Made by a program: the position numbers and the translations under genes. This document shows, piece by piece, positions 39,810 to 49,740 of a DNA stretch of 64,000 nt (its first letter is position 1; each line of letters opens with the position of its first letter). The notes under the pieces are model-generated. The model was not told the DNA's origin. It did not search any database and saw only the letters and a list, made by a program, of their open reading frames with translations. Source of the DNA: a phage; NCBI GenBank assembly GCA_024672315.1, contig GCA_024672315.1_4714.1; one strand, 5' to 3'.

Positions 39810-41606
39810 TCAATCGATTATGTCGTGATCGTTAATTTCTACAATTTCTTCATCGAATCGACCGACGTCTTTCTTCAAGCCTGCATTGGTTGCTGCAACG
39901 TCATTTGCAATTTGTGGAGTAATGATTAACCGACCACGCTCGTCGATAGGTGCGTACATACTGAACTTCTGACGTCCGGTTGGTTCGGAGTGCGGAAGAT
40001 TCAGATAGCTTGCACAGAACGGGATGGAACCACTAACCAAACGACTCTCGTCAGCCAATGCAGCACCGCCTGCATTTTGGCTCTGGAGAACAACATGTGT
40101 GCTCACTTTGAACAGCATGCAATCACCAGGTGACTGAATCGATGTTGCCACTTTCTCACGTTTATCACGATTGCTCTGGATATTGAGAATCGCTTCCGTT
40201 GCAACTTGATTTCGCAACGCCTTCTGTACATCGCGATTGGTCATCTCTTTACGGTTGTTCTGTCGTTTACCACGTTCTGTGGTTTTAAGATGGAACCCCA
40301 GTTTAAAGATGCTCTTACGCACATCCTCCATGACATATTCCAACACCATCAGTTCCTTACCGAACATCGTCGTGGTATCAACACGACTCATTTCGATAGT
40401 AACATTATCAATCAGATACGCCATAAATTCGTAGAAGTCGTCGCAAGGAATATTTTCCTGTTTGAACTTCTTCTGTTGAATCTCGTCAACGTAAAGATCG
40501 AGACTGTCGATGTGGTGGTTTACATCACGCAACAAACGCGCATCCGCATTGTTGTTATTAAAGATAATCAAACCGAGTAATGTACGCCAATGGTCTGGCG
40601 CATTCGCGAACTCTTCAACCGGATAGTCTTCCGGAAAACGATCGTAATAACGGTCGATGAGATATAAGAACGCACCGACAAGGCCAAGAACAATACGTTC
40701 CGTGCCTCCACGTCTTACAGCGATTTGAATATCAGGATGTTTATAACGTACAGCGCTAGCGCTACGGCTTTTACCGCTTTTGCTGATACTAAAGCCTTTA
40801 GGAATAACCCCCATGGTGCGATAGATTACCCATTGGTCGCGCGGAAAATCACGTTCAGCAAGGTTCCGTCCGGTTACGGCTTCGACACCTGCAAAACGTC
40901 GGAAACACTCACCCACCCCGTACTTCGCAAAGAGATAGTGACCCAGTGTGGTTACGCTGGTGTGGTTGATGTTGTCACCGTTCACTTTACTTTGTTTGGT
41001 AAGATGATAGATTTGCGACCAGGGTAATGACAGGTAATGACGATAATCGATACCGGTCGGTGTATCATTGCTCAGGAACTGATACGGTGTACGTTTAACC
41101 GTGATTTTGTCACGCGGAAGCATGATGAACGCCATGTCTTTCGTGTAACTGATTACCGGGTCAGCGAGCACCGCACTGAGAATGAAGTTCGCACCACGTA
41201 GACGCATTTTACCACCCTGACCTACCGCGGGTAATAGGAGAGGGTGTCGGATAATGCAGTAGTCCTTTCCGGGTTCACGACGGTCACCTGATTCCATCGC
41301 GCCGTACCAGCGGAATTCTAGCATCACCATAAACACATCGGAAGGCGCAAGGTCGAAGGTCAGCTTACCGCTATCCTTCCCTTTGGTTTTCTTTCCTCCG
41401 CTTAAGTAGTGGAACTGTTCGCGGGCCATACAGCGACGCAGGCCATGATACACCAGATCCTTAGGTAAACTATCTTTGCTGTTCCGCCAAAGACGATCAA
41501 CATAGGACTCAACATCTTGCATCTTATCGACGACGATGTTGCGTGCTATCTTCTCGTTCATCTTCGGTGCAAGCTCAGCGACAGCTTTGCAGAATCTAGG
41601 ATCCAT
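39810..41606 (-). CDS. hypothetical protein
   Basis: Track start 41609 is GTG; ATG 41606 with AAAGGAG RBS; 598 aa; no polymerase or ligase motifs. Confidence 0.55.
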   Translation of the reverse strand: MDPRFCKAVAELAPKMNEKIARNIVVDKMQDVESYVDRLWRNSKDSLPKDLVYHGLRRCMAREQFHYLSGGKKTKGKDSGKLTFDLAPSDVFMVMLEFRWYGAMESGDRREPGKDYCIIRHPLLLPAVGQGGKMRLRGANFILSAVLADPVISYTKDMAFIMLPRDKITVKRTPYQFLSNDTPTGIDYRHYLSLPWSQIYHLTKQSKVNGDNINHTSVTTLGHYLFAKYGVGECFRRFAGVEAVTGRNLAERDFPRDQWVIYRTMGVIPKGFSISKSGKSRSASAVRYKHPDIQIAVRRGGTERIVLGLVGAFLYLIDRYYDRFPEDYPVEEFANAPDHWRTLLGLIIFNNNNADARLLRDVNHHIDSLDLYVDEIQQKKFKQENIPCDDFYEFMAYLIDNVTIEMSRVDTTTMFGKELMVLEYVMEDVRKSIFKLGFHLKTTERGKRQNNRKEMTNRDVQKALRNQVATEAILNIQSNRDKREKVATSIQSPGDCMLFKVSTHVVLQSQNAGGAALADESRLVSGSIPFCASYLNLPHSEPTGRQKFSMYAPIDERGRLIITPQIANDVAATNAGLKKDVGRFDEEIVEINDHDIID

Positions 41607-41645
41607 CACACACTCCTTTCAGAAAGTTGCTTAAGCAGATTAAAG

Positions 41646-43082
41646 TTACTTTTTCGATGACGCCTTCTCAAGAATCTTGAAAAAGGTCATACCTATACCG
41701 ACAACGGCCGCAGTTATACTCGCAGCGGCTTTCCAAACATCGACGTTACGTTGACGTCGCGCTTCTTCCGCTTCACGTTGTCTTTTTGCCTCTTCATCAC
41801 GTCGGCGTATCTCGGCAGCAAACTCGTCGTGCTTACGTTTGGATTCTTCGTCTCGACGACGAAGTTCAGCGACGAATTCTTCATGTTTGCGTTTAGCCTC
41901 GTCATCACGACGTTTTAAATCAGCTTGATAATCTTCGTGTATTTGTTTACGTAGATCATCTTGACGTTTCATTTCGGCTTGGTGTTGTTCCATCCTACGT
42001 TTTTGTTCGTCTTTAAGCTGATCGAGTTCGGCTTTATGTTGTTCATCGCGCAGCTTTGCGTCGGCGCGATGCGCCTCATGCATCTGCGCGATAACTGCCT
42101 TGTGTTCATCCGCCATACGTCGCATTTCAGCCATCACCCCTTTAAGGGTTTCTTCTGATGCCTTACGTTCGTAGCTACGCTGGTCGAAATCATTTTTGTA
42201 GGCTTCTTTTTGGATGGGGTCGCGCCAATGCAATGCCGATTCACGTGTCGGAAAAACATTGTACTTCCACATCTCTTTTTCCAAATCTTCGACCGGTACG
42301 AAGATGGAGTCATTATTCCCGAAGGTAACCAACATACCTGGCGCGCCTGCTCCATTCGTTGGTTTTATTTCGAACGCTTTCCCCAGCACGTTAACCCATA
42401 AGCTATACGGATTATGAAAGTCGGGTGGCGTCCAATGGATAGTGAGTTGCGTTCCGAGAATTCGGAAACCCTCTGTTTTTCCCGTCAAGCTCCGCGCGCA
42501 CGTTGCGATGTAGGGGTGATCAATCCCTTTCGTAACGTGGTCTGCGCTTTTGTATTCTCCTTTAACTTTTACGATTGCCACGTTGATTTGCGCGACATAA
42601 GCGGGTTGATTAAAGTTCAACGTGTTGAGGTCAATTTGACATATTTCATCCAGCGTATCGTACCAGTCTTGCTGGTCTAATAGGCGCGGCATTTTCTCGG
42701 TGTTAACAATACGACGGATATGCGGTTTCCTTATCGCGTAACCTGTGCCGTTTTTAACACGGAGTATATCCCGACGTCTACCCGCGTAGACGAAGTTTCT
42801 GAATGCACCATTCGCATTAGATACGTCATGGCTGTCAACTATTACAGGACTACGAAATTTTGAACGTCGTACGATCCTGAATGTATTGCCGTCCTCAACC
42901 CTACCAGGAATGTACTGGAACATATTGTCGGAGGTGATAACCAACACGGTATGGCCAGATTCATTAATACATGCCCATCCTAATTCCAGGTCATATAACG
43001 GTTCAGCATAACCGTCAATGCGATAAGCGTGCGTACCATCCCACGGTTCGAACGCCGTATCACATATTGGCATGGAGGGCAT
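41646..43082 (-). CDS. tail-anchored protein with charged Glu/Arg/Lys-rich helical repeats
   Basis: Track start 43088 is TTG; ATG 43082 with GGAGG RBS; tandem ~18-aa repeats; C-terminal TM AAASITAAVVGIGMTFF; conserved promoter motif ~150 nt upstream. Confidence 0.55.
   Translation of the reverse strand: MPSMPICDTAFEPWDGTHAYRIDGYAEPLYDLELGWACINESGHTVLVITSDNMFQYIPGRVEDGNTFRIVRRSKFRSPVIVDSHDVSNANGAFRNFVYAGRRRDILRVKNGTGYAIRKPHIRRIVNTEKMPRLLDQQDWYDTLDEICQIDLNTLNFNQPAYVAQINVAIVKVKGEYKSADHVTKGIDHPYIATCARSLTGKTEGFRILGTQLTIHWTPPDFHNPYSLWVNVLGKAFEIKPTNGAGAPGMLVTFGNNDSIFVPVEDLEKEMWKYNVFPTRESALHWRDPIQKEAYKNDFDQRSYERKASEETLKGVMAEMRRMADEHKAVIAQMHEAHRADAKLRDEQHKAELDQLKDEQKRRMEQHQAEMKRQDDLRKQIHEDYQADLKRRDDEAKRKHEEFVAELRRRDEESKRKHDEFAAEIRRRDEEAKRQREAEEARRQRNVDVWKAAASITAAVVGIGMTFFKILEKASSKK
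41736..41906 (-). repeat. tandem ~54-nt coding repeats
   Basis: Encode DLKRRDDEAKRKHEEFVAE / LRRRDEESKRKHDEFAAE / IRRRDEEAKRQ. Confidence 0.6.
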
Positions 43083-43232
43083 CGTCAACCTCCATCTGAT
43101 TGAAAACTATCACGCATAACGCATTTCCCTTTTCTTGTTCTTATCGAGCCGACAGCCGACGGTTTCAGTATCGTTCCTAGCGCGAGAACGACCTTACGTG
43201 TTGTCTATGCCTTATTCATCGCAGGCGTCTGT

Positions 43233-43256
43233 CACCTAGGTAATGTAAGCGTCAAA
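43233..43256 (-). promoter_or_regulatory. conserved motif, candidate promoter for gene 41646-43082
   Basis: CACCTAGGTAATGTAAGCGTCAAA, ~150 nt upstream of ATG. Confidence 0.45.
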
Positions 43257-43290
43257 TTTTTTCTATTCGCAACGATAAACGGCATAGAAA

Positions 43291-43320
43291 CCTCCCCCAA
43301 CCCTTACGGGCTGAGGGAGG
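43291..43320 (-). terminator. CCTCC-family hairpin H6 downstream of major virion protein gene
   Basis: CCTCCC ... CCC-TTAC-GGG ... GGGAGG, about 100 nt past stop; promoter motif 35 nt further on minus strand. Confidence 0.55.
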
Positions 43321-43419
43321 CTGACTTATGTATCACGGTGCCGGATGAATGTCCGGTGCAATGAAACCATCCGCAACGTTGTCGTCAAGAATATCATCCA
43401 ACGAAGCAGCTACGGTAGT

Positions 43420-45642
43420 TCAGTTAGTCTGAACAGGCAGCTTGATGTTTTCAGTGTAGACCTTACGCAGGTTCACAACGTTAATCAGACCCAGCAGCGG
43501 GCAGTTGTTAACGAAGCGGCAGCGCGGCTGAACCATGGTTTCTTTAGAAACCTGACCGTTACGGGTAACCTGAGCAACAGATACCAGTTCCGGTACATAC
43601 AGGAACATACCGAAGGTCAGCGGATCCGGAGAACCCTGGATACCACGAGACAGGGTCACGAAGATCTTATCACGCAGCATGACGTTCGGGTTATCTACAA
43701 CCACGAAGTTGAAGCTTACACCAACGGTACGGAAATCACCATCGGTCTGCAGGAACTGCGGGATGTAGTTGTCAGTTGCTACTACGCAACGCGGTTTCTC
43801 ATCAGCGTTGGAAGACAGCAGCTGCAGAGCTGGCTGATAACCAGACTCGGAGTACATGCGGTATGCCATTTCACGAATCACGTTCATGATCGCAGCAGAC
43901 ACTTCAGCACGACGTTCTGCAGTGGTGGTACCCTGAACAGATTTCTCCAGGTCCAGATTGATTTCTTCGAACCACGGACGGATCAGGTAACGACCGAAAC
44001 CTTCGATCTGGATGTCGCCGAACTGACGGAAGCGAGAGGTCGCAACCGCTTTCAGTGCGTCTTTGTAGCTGAACAGTTTCTCAACCATCAGGTTGTCGAA
44101 ACGTGCGTTAGCAGCCTGGATCAGAACGTCCAGGTCAGCAGCGTTTTCTTCCCAATCCAGCGGACGAGGAATGGAGAACGGAGCCAGCAGGCCGATTGCG
44201 TAACGTTCTTGCTTCATGTTGAAGTCAAGGTGCTTACCGCGTTCACGACGGTTGCTGTTGTTACGACGGATACGCAGTTCGTAACCAACCAGTTTGAAGC
44301 TCAGGTCTTCAGCCAGCTGTTTGAACTCTTCGCTCTTACGCGGTTGTTCGATGTTGTCCTGATCAACCAGGCGATACAGTTCAGCGTTAGCGCCGTTAAC
44401 ACGCAGACCGGCTTTCTCTACGTTGGAAGAACCGTAAACTTCGATTGCCAGCTGAGCAGCGGATTTCGAATCGATGATGTCCTGCAGCGCTTCAGCTCGT
44501 GCACCTTTAACGTCAACGGTGTGCTCATCAACGAAGATGGAGTGGGTGTCGAACGCCAGGGTCATTTTGCGGAAGTCGCCTTCCAGGGATTTCTGGAAAC
44601 CGTTGGTGATCAGACCAGATACGTCGAACGGTACGTAAGAGGTTTTGCTGTGCTTGGTAGATTTGATTTCCACCAGGATTTTGGTCAGCGTGATCTGAGC
44701 ATCCAGCGCATCGGTGTTGTCGCTGTAACCGTTAGCCAGAATGCTATCGTCTTCAGCGATACCGATCATGTCGATCAGTTTATCAACAGCCAGGTAAGAC
44801 GTTTTATAAGTTACGCCTTTAATTTCGATGTCGCGCGGAGCAACGATAGTTTTGTCAACGAAGTACTGCGCGTTAGCATCGTCAGCACGATAGATCGGAT
44901 GCAGATCGGTCACGTCGTTGGACAGAACGTCGTTGTACATGAACGCATCCAGCAGCGGACGACGTACCCAATCAGCCGGAGTACCGTCAGCGTTACGGCG
45001 CAGGTGGTTGAACACCAGCGGACGACGGAAAGATACATCGTAACCGATCTGGTTCGGAGCCAGAACGATGGTGTTGTACAGTTCGTTACCCATGCGGCTC
45101 AGACGAGAAGCCTTCACGTTGAACACAACGGAGTACGGCATCATGTCACGCAGTTCTTTCTGGTCGTAGGACAGCTGAACCAGTTCTTCAGATTCGCAAC
45201 CGCAGGAATCAGCAGCCATCATGACGAAGTTAGAGCTGTCAACTTCACGGCCAGACGGAGTGGTGCTGATGTTCATGGAACGTGCTTGTTTAGCATATTC
45301 CACCGGGTTGCCATGAGCCAGCATGATCAGTGCTGCTGCACGAGCCTGCTGTGCGTTCATGGTGAACAGCTGTTCTTCAATACGCTGCTTCTCTTCCGGA
45401 GTGGTGGTTTCGAAGCCCAGCATGGACAGAACCGGTTCTTCTGCTTTACGGATGTCGCTGCTGAAGCTCTTAACATCCATTTCGTTAACCAGTTTGTCCA
45501 TGGATTTGAAATCAACCTTAGAAGCAGATTCCATAGACAGGAAGGTGTTCTCCAGACCTTTGTCTGCTGGTTTGCTACCATTAGCGGTCAGGAACTGGCG
45601 AGTGGCCGCGACCTGTTGGCTAAGAAGGGTTTTATCATTCAT
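43420..45642 (-). CDS. major virion structural protein, tentatively major capsid (tail sheath not excluded)
   Basis: 740 aa; extreme enterobacterial codon bias; AAGGAT RBS; size fits large-phage capsid proteins; N-terminal ~160 aa contain several S/A/G-x-E sites. Confidence 0.45.
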   Translation of the reverse strand: MNDKTLLSQQVAATRQFLTANGSKPADKGLENTFLSMESASKVDFKSMDKLVNEMDVKSFSSDIRKAEEPVLSMLGFETTTPEEKQRIEEQLFTMNAQQARAAALIMLAHGNPVEYAKQARSMNISTTPSGREVDSSNFVMMAADSCGCESEELVQLSYDQKELRDMMPYSVVFNVKASRLSRMGNELYNTIVLAPNQIGYDVSFRRPLVFNHLRRNADGTPADWVRRPLLDAFMYNDVLSNDVTDLHPIYRADDANAQYFVDKTIVAPRDIEIKGVTYKTSYLAVDKLIDMIGIAEDDSILANGYSDNTDALDAQITLTKILVEIKSTKHSKTSYVPFDVSGLITNGFQKSLEGDFRKMTLAFDTHSIFVDEHTVDVKGARAEALQDIIDSKSAAQLAIEVYGSSNVEKAGLRVNGANAELYRLVDQDNIEQPRKSEEFKQLAEDLSFKLVGYELRIRRNNSNRRERGKHLDFNMKQERYAIGLLAPFSIPRPLDWEENAADLDVLIQAANARFDNLMVEKLFSYKDALKAVATSRFRQFGDIQIEGFGRYLIRPWFEEINLDLEKSVQGTTTAERRAEVSAAIMNVIREMAYRMYSESGYQPALQLLSSNADEKPRCVVATDNYIPQFLQTDGDFRTVGVSFNFVVVDNPNVMLRDKIFVTLSRGIQGSPDPLTFGMFLYVPELVSVAQVTRNGQVSKETMVQPRCRFVNNCPLLGLINVVNLRKVYTENIKLPVQTN

Positions 45643-45791
45643 TGAAAGTATCCTTTACAGAATTAACTTATATAAGTCGGTCGATAGACCATAGCGTACA
45701 CGCGTGCATGCGCCACTATAGTATCAGTAAACACTTACCGTTATTGAGGTCGTGATACAACACTAAAAATGCCGCATAACTTTTCCCTACG

Positions 45792-49716: not shown

Positions 49717-49740
49717 CACCTAGGTAATGTAGTCGTGAAA
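49717..49740 (-). promoter_or_regulatory. conserved motif, candidate promoter for gene 48943-49512
   Basis: CACCTAGGTAATGTAGTCGTGAAA, ~205 nt upstream of ATG. Confidence 0.45.

Follow-up and report, generated by a model that had tools for sequence, protein, structure and literature searches.

Gp40 of Goslar-like jumbo phages: a chimallivirus core protein with a conserved head, a charged helical stalk and a candidate C-terminal anchor

The gp40 locus

This study concerns a single gene in a 64,000-nt stretch of phage DNA (contig GCA_024672315.1_4714.1 of NCBI GenBank assembly GCA_024672315.1), hereafter the window, whose source is closely related to the nucleus-forming jumbo phage vB_EcoM_Goslar of Escherichia (Chimalliviridae). 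The gene, on the minus strand at 41646-43082, encodes a protein that we call gp40 after its Goslar counterpart Goslar_00040 (‘hypothetical protein’), with which it shares 98.5% nucleotide and 99.2% amino acid identity. Gp40 is predicted to consist of a β-rich head, a long and highly charged helical stalk and a hydrophobic helix close to its C-terminus, and we propose, tentatively, that it is made early in infection and may serve as a spacer-tether between a lipid surface and the ChmA/ChmB shell.

The initial annotation had called the gene with the same boundaries, and the call is correct: the frame is open from 41646 to 43088, with its stop codon at 41646-41648 and an ATG at 43082, and the suitably placed GGAGG upstream of this ATG identifies the right gene. 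The upstream neighbour is a phiKZ-type major capsid protein (MCP) gene (Pfam PF25620, E 5e-217). Downstream, 37 nt past the gp40 stop codon, begins the gene for gp39, a protein of 599 residues assigned to PHROG 2943 (‘polymerase’), for which tblastn returned phiKZ gp123, a subunit of the non-virion RNA polymerase (nvRNAP), and 235 phage records. The features of the locus are collected in Table 1.

Table 1. Features in and around gp40; positions refer to the window unless another contig (L number) is given.
Feature	Position	Strand	Basis
Coding sequence of gp40, 478 aa + stop	41646..43082	-	Open reading frame list, Goslar identity, Prichard 2023 Table S3
N-terminal β-rich domain (head), aa 1-288, cg35-specific	42219..43082	-	hhalign, AlphaFold, Foldseek
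Continuous α-helical stalk, aa 289-448, ~23 nm if straight	41739..42218	-	AlphaFold, charge pairs, periodicity
Seven 18-aa units in register, aa 311-436	41775..42152	-	Period-18 signal, register layout
Candidate anchor helix A452-F468 (AAASITAAVVGIGMTFF)	41679..41729	-	Kyte-Doolittle, charge run, conservation
Basic amphipathic end KILEKASSKK	41649..41678	-	Motif comparison
Shine-Dalgarno sequence GGAGG	43089..43093	-	7-11 nt 5' of ATG 43082, read from sequence
Motif CTTACATTACCTAGGTGA, candidate early promoter of the gp40-gp37 block	43232..43249	-	Conservation, rarity, RNA-seq
Intrinsic terminator of the MCP gene, 15-bp stem then UUUCU	43289..43322	-	Fold energy
gp39, nvRNAP subunit, phiKZ gp123 homolog	39810..41609	-	phrog_2943 ‘polymerase’, tblastn
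Extra open reading frame, phiKZ gp121	L006 4500-4952		
Extra open reading frame, 201phi2-1 gp201	L009 2970-3488		
Extra open reading frame, PhiPA3 137	L027 699-1232		
Extra open reading frame, Phabio 188	L017 249-656		

Gp40 is the Goslar-clade member of core family cg35

Gp40 is the Goslar-clade ortholog of the chimallivirus core gene cg35, to which phiKZ gp122, PhiPA3 gp138, 201phi2-1 gp202 and RAY gp1 also belong. Table S3 of Prichard et al. 2023 (PMC10299810) equates Goslar gp040, phiKZ gp122 and RAY gp001* under cg35 with the description ‘hypothetical’, and marks the family with the asterisk reserved for genes unique to chimallin-encoding phages. The assignment is supported by hhalign, which aligned a 5-sequence profile of the gp40 clade with an 8-sequence cg35 profile across 226 head-domain columns at a probability of 97% (E 8.5e-11). 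A Foldseek search of BFVD with the second AlphaFold model (see below) returned 33 uncharacterised chimallivirus proteins and nothing else, with a best E of 8.5e-12 and with the cg35 proteins of Noxifer, Phabio, RP12, 201phi2-1, Eowyn and Miami among the matches. The orthology of PhiPA3 gene 138 is indicated by tblastn (1e-25) and by the record's own note. All sequence and structure matches fall in jumbo phages of the chimallivirus group.

The gene order is equally stable. An MCP gene, a cg35 gene and a gene for a gp123-type nvRNAP subunit follow each other on one strand in all 25 lineages inspected, counted where the start of the sequence record did not intervene. These lineages are the window, two uncultured relatives and 22 further phages (phiKZ, 201phi2-1, PhiPA3, RAY, Eowyn, PCH45, FLC4-4C, RTH11, PDCC-1, EL, FBKp24, Haymo, Phabio, PS119XW, JM-2012, BONAISHI, CF8, Miami, Yong MS32, RisingSun, OBP and LAh10). 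In those other chimalliviruses the cg35 slot holds a protein of 311-483 residues with a helical segment followed by a terminal hydrophobic helix; the exceptions in size are RTH11, annotated at 207 aa only, and LAh10, where the gene was seen in part. The layout that the initial annotation had called unusual for phage proteins is thus real, but it is no oddity of one phage, being shared in a shorter form by every chimallivirus inspected.

With the head domain as query, HMMER found two distant relatives only among 1.84 billion representatives, P0015 and P0016 (~30% identity to gp40; E 3e-23 and 1e-21), which have the same head, a shorter ER/K (Glu-Arg/Lys) helix and a hydrophobic tail. Their loci, from uncultured sources, encode in this order the MCP, cg35, an nvRNAP subunit of ~600 residues and a protein of ~770 residues. 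Goslar was the only match when gp40, P0015 and P0016 were compared by tblastn with 50,697 phage records. Two profile searches for further homologs added almost nothing new; the first scored the best 8000 candidates, which were probably matches to the charged helix. Searches of Pfam, PHROGs and PDB sequences with gp40 gave no informative family, and the PHROGs that matched carry no function.

Members of the family elsewhere resemble gp40 in their homologous N-terminal domain, their place between the MCP and nvRNAP genes, their helical region with a terminal hydrophobic helix and their absence from virion lists. Apart from the stalk, described below, the Goslar tail is cleaner and more transmembrane-like than those of the Pseudomonas phages, and a small overlapping upstream open reading frame (phiKZ gp121, 201phi2-1 gp201, PhiPA3 137) has no counterpart in the Goslar clade. 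This extra frame of 135-177 codons lies between the capsid gene and cg35 in Pseudomonas chimalliviruses and, in phiKZ, 201phi2-1 and PhiPA3, shares 32-44 nt with the start of cg35, read in a different frame; at this position Goslar-like phages have 337 nt of non-coding DNA. A match of phiKZ gp121 to gp40 residues 1-130 was examined and rejected, as gp122 alone aligns to gp40 residues 24-285; the extra frame does not belong to the cg35 head.

Head domain

The head was modelled twice. A first AlphaFold run on an alignment of 9 sequences gave a pLDDT (predicted local distance difference test) below 50 for the head and was unusable, and a second run on 26 sequences was partly confident, with head strands reaching a pLDDT of 70-88 in parts. 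Among close Goslar-like relatives the head is almost invariant from residue 135 onwards. It has no Pfam family, no sequence relative in the PDB and no significant fold match there. The cg35 protein of the Vibrio phage Yong MS32 (L023 180-1631, 483 aa) owes its length to a head of ~399 residues and not to its stalk.

A charged helical stalk built from 18-residue units

The second AlphaFold model predicts a single helix over residues 289-439, with a pLDDT of 86-93 at residues 300-390, and the thinner alignment extended it over residues 280-474. The initial annotation had described about 120 residues of charged helix; the helix is present, and its length is put at about 150-160 residues. The segment of residues 287-448 contains 27% Asp/Glu, 27% Lys/Arg, 17% hydrophobic residues and 1% Gly/Pro, and from about residue 347 it is Glu/Arg/Lys-rich and resembles a single helix. 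Oppositely charged pairs at i/i+3 and i/i+4 number 87 in this segment, compared with 45.7 +/- 5.2 in shuffled sequences (z = 7.9). The hydrophobic periodicity of the stalk peaks at 3.63 residues (power 0.96, against 0.11 at 3.5). Because of this periodicity and the excess of charge pairs, the stalk carries the signature of an ER/K-type single α-helix rather than that of a heptad coiled coil. Its first ~45 residues are more coiled-coil-like (local a/d occupancy 0.75), and a straight helical bundle may be an alternative to a monomeric single helix.

ER/K single α-helix (SAH) domains are known from the lever extensions of myosin VI/X and from caldesmon. Like these, the gp40 stalk is ~54% charged with dense i/i+4 Glu-Arg/Lys pairs, contains almost no Gly or Pro, shows no heptad periodicity and is predicted as one uninterrupted helix. 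It differs from them in a weak hydrophobic stripe, with F/L/M/I every 18 residues and the 3.63-residue periodicity.

The same spacing is seen in the sequence itself. At a period of 18 residues gp40 has 46 identities, against about 13 at other periods and 31 at period 36. The last five of the seven units (aa 347-436, 41775-42044) are clearly related, with the consensus E-x-[FHY]-x-A-E-[LMI]-[KR]-R-[RQ]-D-[DE]-x-x-K-R-[KR]-H. At the DNA level these five are 43-65% identical, Tandem Repeats Finder reported no array in gp40 when run on 41000-43500, and the units are therefore old, diverged duplications retained at the protein level. An exact-seed repeat finder gave one 18-nt pair 54 nt apart and nothing more. 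The 18-residue period put forward in the initial annotation is accordingly real, with five to seven diverged copies in place of the 2.5 tandem repeats claimed. The 54-nt DNA repeats it had placed at 41736-41906 overlap the three best units (41775-41936), but are shifted relative to them and do not constitute a tandem repeat of the DNA.

One unit of 18 residues equals 5.0 helical turns. Close relatives in public assemblies encode gp40 proteins of 460, 478, 489 and 507 residues, with stalk indels of -18, +11 and +29 residues. These indels correspond to 5.0, 3.06 and 8.06 helical turns, and their closeness to whole turns indicates that stalks of different length still present head and tail at the same rotational phase. 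The region after the head measures 186 residues in Goslar and 61-124 elsewhere, i.e., it is two to three times longer in Goslar. The stalks of other lineages comprise 33-96 residues, which would extend about 5-14 nm as a continuous helix, and form shorter, more hydrophobic helices. The dense salt-bridge pattern is limited to the Goslar clade (z 3.5-8.5), with BONAISHI weaker and non-significant (z 1.7).

The C-terminal helix

A452-F468 form a run of 17 uncharged residues between K451 and K469. The Kyte-Doolittle (KD) profile has its 19-residue maximum of 1.76, above the classical cut-off of 1.6, at residues 452-471, the sole hydropathy peak in gp40. A crude Hessa sum that ignores residue position comes to +2.8 kcal/mol for the tail, a marginal value, with the next best window elsewhere at 9.6. 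No other transmembrane (TM) segment and no signal peptide were found in gp40, and the hydrophobic helix lies within ~30 residues of the C-terminus. The initial annotation had named a C-terminal TM helix; a hydrophobic helix is indeed there, and its TM grade is borderline given the 17 uncharged residues and the Hessa value. Across Goslar-like phages this tail hardly changes, in contrast to the stalk.

A terminal hydrophobic or amphipathic helix is found at the matching position in 24/24 other family members inspected, and these tails fall into two kinds. TM-grade tails by KD are those of JM-2012 (2.14), P0016 (2.02), Eowyn (2.01), P0015 and BONAISHI (both 1.97) and Goslar itself, together with Yong MS32 (20 uncharged residues). 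The Yong MS32 tail, ALIGIVIGGIAAVLTALGVG, is the most convincing transmembrane tail of the cg35 family, with a KD of 2.47. The tails of phiKZ, 201phi2-1, PhiPA3, PDCC-1, Phabio, PS119XW and FBKp24 are amphipathic and carry Asp, Glu or Lys in their interior; hydrophobic moments of 0.40-0.46 were obtained for such helices, examples being those of PhiPA3 and PS119XW. Since so many ortholog tails are amphipathic or charged, a canonical tail anchor is not family-wide and at best lineage-specific. Several tails have a basic amphipathic end in common (Goslar FFKILEKASSKK, PhiPA3 SILEKLFKKR, PS119XW LLEKIFRKR), and the ILEK..KK motif at the end of gp40 recurs in PhiPA3 gp138 and PS119XW. The family-wide feature, as predicted from these sequences, is a C-terminal hydrophobic or amphipathic attachment helix carried on a helical stalk.

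Two known classes of protein offer comparisons. Tail-anchored proteins, such as E. coli ElaB/YqjD/YgaM and eukaryotic tethers, resemble gp40 in that they lack an N-terminal signal, carry one hydrophobic helix near a basic C-terminus and expose a large part to the cytoplasm on a rod-like helix. Gp40 departs from them in its lack of any sequence relationship, its marginal hydrophobicity and the non-TM tails of its orthologs. A Pfam search at E <= 10 with the C-terminal 80-114 residues gave assorted sub-threshold matches, several of them to membrane proteins and none to ElaB/DUF883. Proteins of the MinD/FtsA type end in an amphipathic membrane-targeting helix, and the basic amphipathic ends of cg35 orthologs are like these in composition only; Goslar keeps its basic end after the hydrophobic run and has no homology to the MinD/FtsA helices.

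Transcription of gp40

Gp40 is in its own transcription unit behind the terminator of the capsid gene, which sets it apart from the late MCP transcript. The terminator hairpin, directly after the capsid gene, has a folding energy of -29.7 kcal/mol (z = -6.8), and the hairpin and the TTTTATGCCG that follows it are kept in the distant Goslar-like contigs L002 and L005, whose gp40 is only ~30% identical. Downstream of the hairpin, the motif CTACATTACCTAGGTGA is conserved among Goslar-like phages with equally divergent gp40. The sequence (C/T)TACATTACCTA, with TGA three bases on, is identical in the window, Goslar, L002 and L005, the three intervening bases differing in L005. The core CTACATTACCTAGG(TGA) occurs twice in the window, at 43232-43249 (-) and 49721-49732 (-), against 0.10 occurrences expected, and both sites lie just 5' of blocks of genes (gp040-037 and gp046-044) that are ChmA-independent in the available Goslar expression entries. 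The CTACATTACCTAGG motif is thus a candidate early promoter, i.e., one that the virion RNA polymerase may use, and it resembles the early TATATTAC core of phiKZ. A scan for sigma-70 promoters found nothing near gp40, as one would expect where transcription relies on phage polymerases.

Published RNA-seq data on Goslar are in keeping with this arrangement. At 30 minutes post infection under ChmA knock-down, the entries available from Supplementary Table 2 of Armbruster et al. (bioRxiv 10.1101/2023.09.20.558163) give log2 fold changes of +0.7 to +1.1 for gp037-gp040 and about -4, a ~16-fold fall, for the adjacent MCP gene. Among the same entries the structural genes, namely MCP gp041 and the block gp022-gp036, lose expression by a factor of 8 to 100. 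As far as these entries go, gp037-gp040 are unaffected or slightly raised without ChmA, and gp40 therefore belongs, with gp39, to an early, nucleus-independent class. Gp39 and gp40 show the same behaviour and are probably co-transcribed.

Virion content and functional data on orthologs

We rejected a role for gp40 as a virion protein: gp040 (YP_009820725 / HOV27_gp040) is not among the matches listed in the Goslar virion mass-spectrometry tables, in which gp039 does appear. The records of phiKZ gp122 and 201phi2-1 gp202 likewise have no ‘structural’ note, unlike those of their neighbours.

Two studies of Pseudomonas phages provide functional data. PhiPA3 gp138 was recovered in green fluorescent protein pull-downs of both ChmA and ChmB (gp2) and by ChmA miniTurboID (Enustun et al. 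2023, PMC10643120), where it is described as having ‘no annotated or predicted function’; the identification in that paper rests on a single whole-word match to gp138. In an antisense-oligomer screen of phiKZ, a weak (+) phenotype was seen with each of the two oligomers that target gp122, and the top-hit table scores gp122 with + for plaque-forming/colony-forming units and + for ChmA level (Gerovac et al. 2025, PMC12571901). The knock-down of gp122 was also among the few with a strong effect on phage transcription at 30 min (PMC12571901).

Other observations

A frame of 766 codons at 43345-45645 (+), antisense to the MCP gene (43420-45642, minus strand), yields a low-complexity translation rich in Val, Gln and Phe and is almost certainly no gene in its own right but a shadow open reading frame of the capsid gene, which is highly expressed.

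Several Goslar-like gp40 proteins (P0004, P0007 and P0012-P0014) are deposited under isolate assemblies of E. coli O157 and Salmonella enterica. The contigs that encode them reach 244,573 bp, the size of a whole phage. Goslar-like jumbo phages thus accompany, or contaminate, clinical and food enterobacterial isolates, and they may infect Salmonella.

A tentative model of gp40 function and its alternatives

The combined results suggest that gp40 may be an early, C-terminally anchored stalk protein acting as a spacer-tether between a lipid surface and the ChmA/ChmB shell, and we put the probability of this reading at roughly 0.4. In this model gp40 would be made in the cytoplasm early in infection and attach after translation through its C-terminal helix. 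As gp40 has no hydrophobic element other than the one at its very end, attachment would have to follow translation and the head would face the cytoplasm. In Goslar-like phages, Yong, JM-2012, BONAISHI and Eowyn-like phages the tail may form a tail-anchor-like transmembrane or deeply inserted helix, while the tails of phiKZ- and PhiPA3-like phages may lie on the membrane surface as basic amphipathic helices. The likeliest site of attachment would be the cytoplasmic face of the inner membrane or of the early phage infection (EPI) vesicle around the injected genome. The rigid stalk, in Goslar an ER/K helix of ~23 nm composed of five-turn units, would keep the head off this surface, and the head could engage the nascent or mature ChmA/ChmB shell at that distance. 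Gp40 may thus act as a spacer-tether at the interface of membrane and shell during the hand-over from vesicle to nucleus, and its loss would be expected to disturb the nucleus-dependent transcription programme.

A membrane-anchored spacer or tether had been proposed in the initial annotation. The tripartite layout supports the spacer or tether, while the canonical tail anchor does not extend to the family as a whole. The proposal is reasonable since the layout is kept in relatives at ~30% identity and, in a shorter form, in every chimallivirus inspected. We favour a tether because the EPI vesicle is the only phage-specific membrane of this life cycle and the gene is both early and, according to Prichard 2023, specific to nucleus-forming phages; the Goslar helix would be an exaggerated, phase-preserving ruler. 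A more detailed version, in which cg35/gp40 sits on the cytoplasmic face of the EPI vesicle or inner membrane and its head recruits or nucleates ChmA/ChmB at a distance set by the ER/K ruler, is speculative and, as it stands, unlikely. The ruler would measure ~23 nm in Goslar and about 20 and 27 nm in the natural variants.

Several observations weigh against the proposed tether. The literature searched offered no evidence of membrane association for any cg35 member. In Goslar the tail is a short segment with many Ala, Gly, Thr and Ser residues and a marginal Hessa value (+2.8), the pLDDT of residues 440-478 is under 55, and the tails of phiKZ, 201phi2-1, PhiPA3, PDCC-1 and Phabio contain Asp, Glu or Lys and are unable to span a bilayer. 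The shell data come from a phage with an amphipathic tail, to which a direct protein-protein anchor would fit equally, and labelling and pull-downs also recover shell-docked capsid and tail proteins, so that the association of gp138 could be indirect. Lastly, the effect of the gp122 knock-down could be polar on gp123, the nvRNAP subunit gene 10 nt downstream.

Recovery of PhiPA3 gp138 with a proteinaceous shell means that the anchor could be to protein and not to lipid, and a shell-docked stalk is the main rival to the membrane tether. The C-terminal helix would in this case insert into ChmB or into the lattice of ChmA, much as the tails of ChmA itself plug into neighbouring protomers, which we consider possible if rather doubtful; equally doubtful is the corollary that the head projects into the cytoplasm toward ribosomes/mRNA, PhuZ filaments or arriving capsids. 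Such docking agrees with the miniTurboID labelling and the pull-downs with ChmA and ChmB, with tails that are amphipathic and not TM-like in the Pseudomonas phages measured, with the restriction of the family to chimallin-encoding phages (Prichard 2023) and with co-expression early, when the shell is built. However, a protein socket has no need of the TM-like tails of Yong MS32 and JM-2012, the basic KK/KKR end is typical of lipid-facing anchors, and gp138 is not among the main shell-associated proteins characterised in PMC10643120.

It is improbable that gp40 is a membrane-bound initiator or holder of procapsid assembly that is left behind afterwards. Such a protein would be functionally similar to gp40 of phage T4, which acts with the gp20 portal. 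The adjacency to the MCP gene, universal in the lineages checked, would suit this role, as would the presence of capsid proteins in the ChmB pull-down that contains PhiPA3 gp138 and, as expected of an assembly factor, absence from the virion matches listed. Moreover, the inner membrane is a site of chimallivirus capsid assembly for which an anchor is not known to have been named (PMC12908238, PMC10299810). Yet a strong, conserved terminator parts gp40 from the MCP gene and the promoter-like motif is its own, and gp40 is of the ChmA-independent early class, while structural genes, in the expression entries available, fall 8- to 100-fold on ChmA knock-down. Furthermore, knock-down of phiKZ gp122 alters transcription at 30 min and that of the MCP hardly does, and the gene is listed as unique to nucleus-forming phages (Prichard 2023), though related capsids exist outside them.

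Still less probable is a role as an accessory or assembly factor of the nvRNAP, with the hydrophobic tail acting as a protein-interaction helix. Gp40 lies directly upstream of the gene for an nvRNAP subunit, with which it is co-regulated, in every lineage, and the knock-downs of phiKZ gp122 and gp124 both disturb phage transcription; the gene order, however, may reflect a shared early promoter only. In the antisense screen gp122 falls outside the cluster formed by the nvRNAP, ChmA and PicA knock-downs, and a 23-nm stalk with a hydrophobic tail has no obvious role in a nuclear enzyme. To our knowledge, the purified phiKZ nvRNAP consists of gp55, gp68, gp71/73, gp74 and gp123, without gp122.

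A lysis-related membrane protein (holin, antiholin or spanin-like), which a single Gly/Ala-rich hydrophobic helix and a helical rod superficially recall, was rejected and has a negligible chance of being correct: in this protein of 478 aa the helix is C-terminal to a cytoplasmic part of 450 residues, there is no N-terminal TM segment, signal or adjacent lipoprotein partner, no PHROG or Pfam match to lysis families was found for gp40, its neighbours are the MCP and RNA polymerase subunit genes, and it is an early, chimallivirus-specific core gene whose ortholog co-purified with the nuclear shell.

Significance

Gp40 is not a new gene, since the cg35 family had already been catalogued. What is new relative to the literature searched is the head-stalk-anchor design shared by the family, its split into TM-like and amphipathic tails and the link to early expression, and also, in Goslar-like phages, a stalk expanded into an ER/K helix whose length varies by whole turns. 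The description that fits gp40 best is that of a new, phage-specific form of anchored tether, a function that we infer. The questions touched are how the genome passes from the EPI vesicle to the ChmA shell, how the shell is positioned or nucleated and how procapsids are held at the inner membrane, and for none of these steps did the literature searched name a phage membrane protein.

The cg35 proteins are still ‘hypothetical’, though the PhiPA3 ortholog is linked to the shell and the phiKZ ortholog scored in a knock-down screen. Goslar appears to be the most tractable source of a cg35 member because its long ER/K ruler comes with natural length variants in whole turns. Even if the function proves ordinary, a core gene of the chimalliviruses gains an architecture, an expression class and a candidate early promoter; if the more detailed version with shell recruitment at the vesicle holds, no tail-anchored organelle tether would have been described before gp40 in a bacterial virus.

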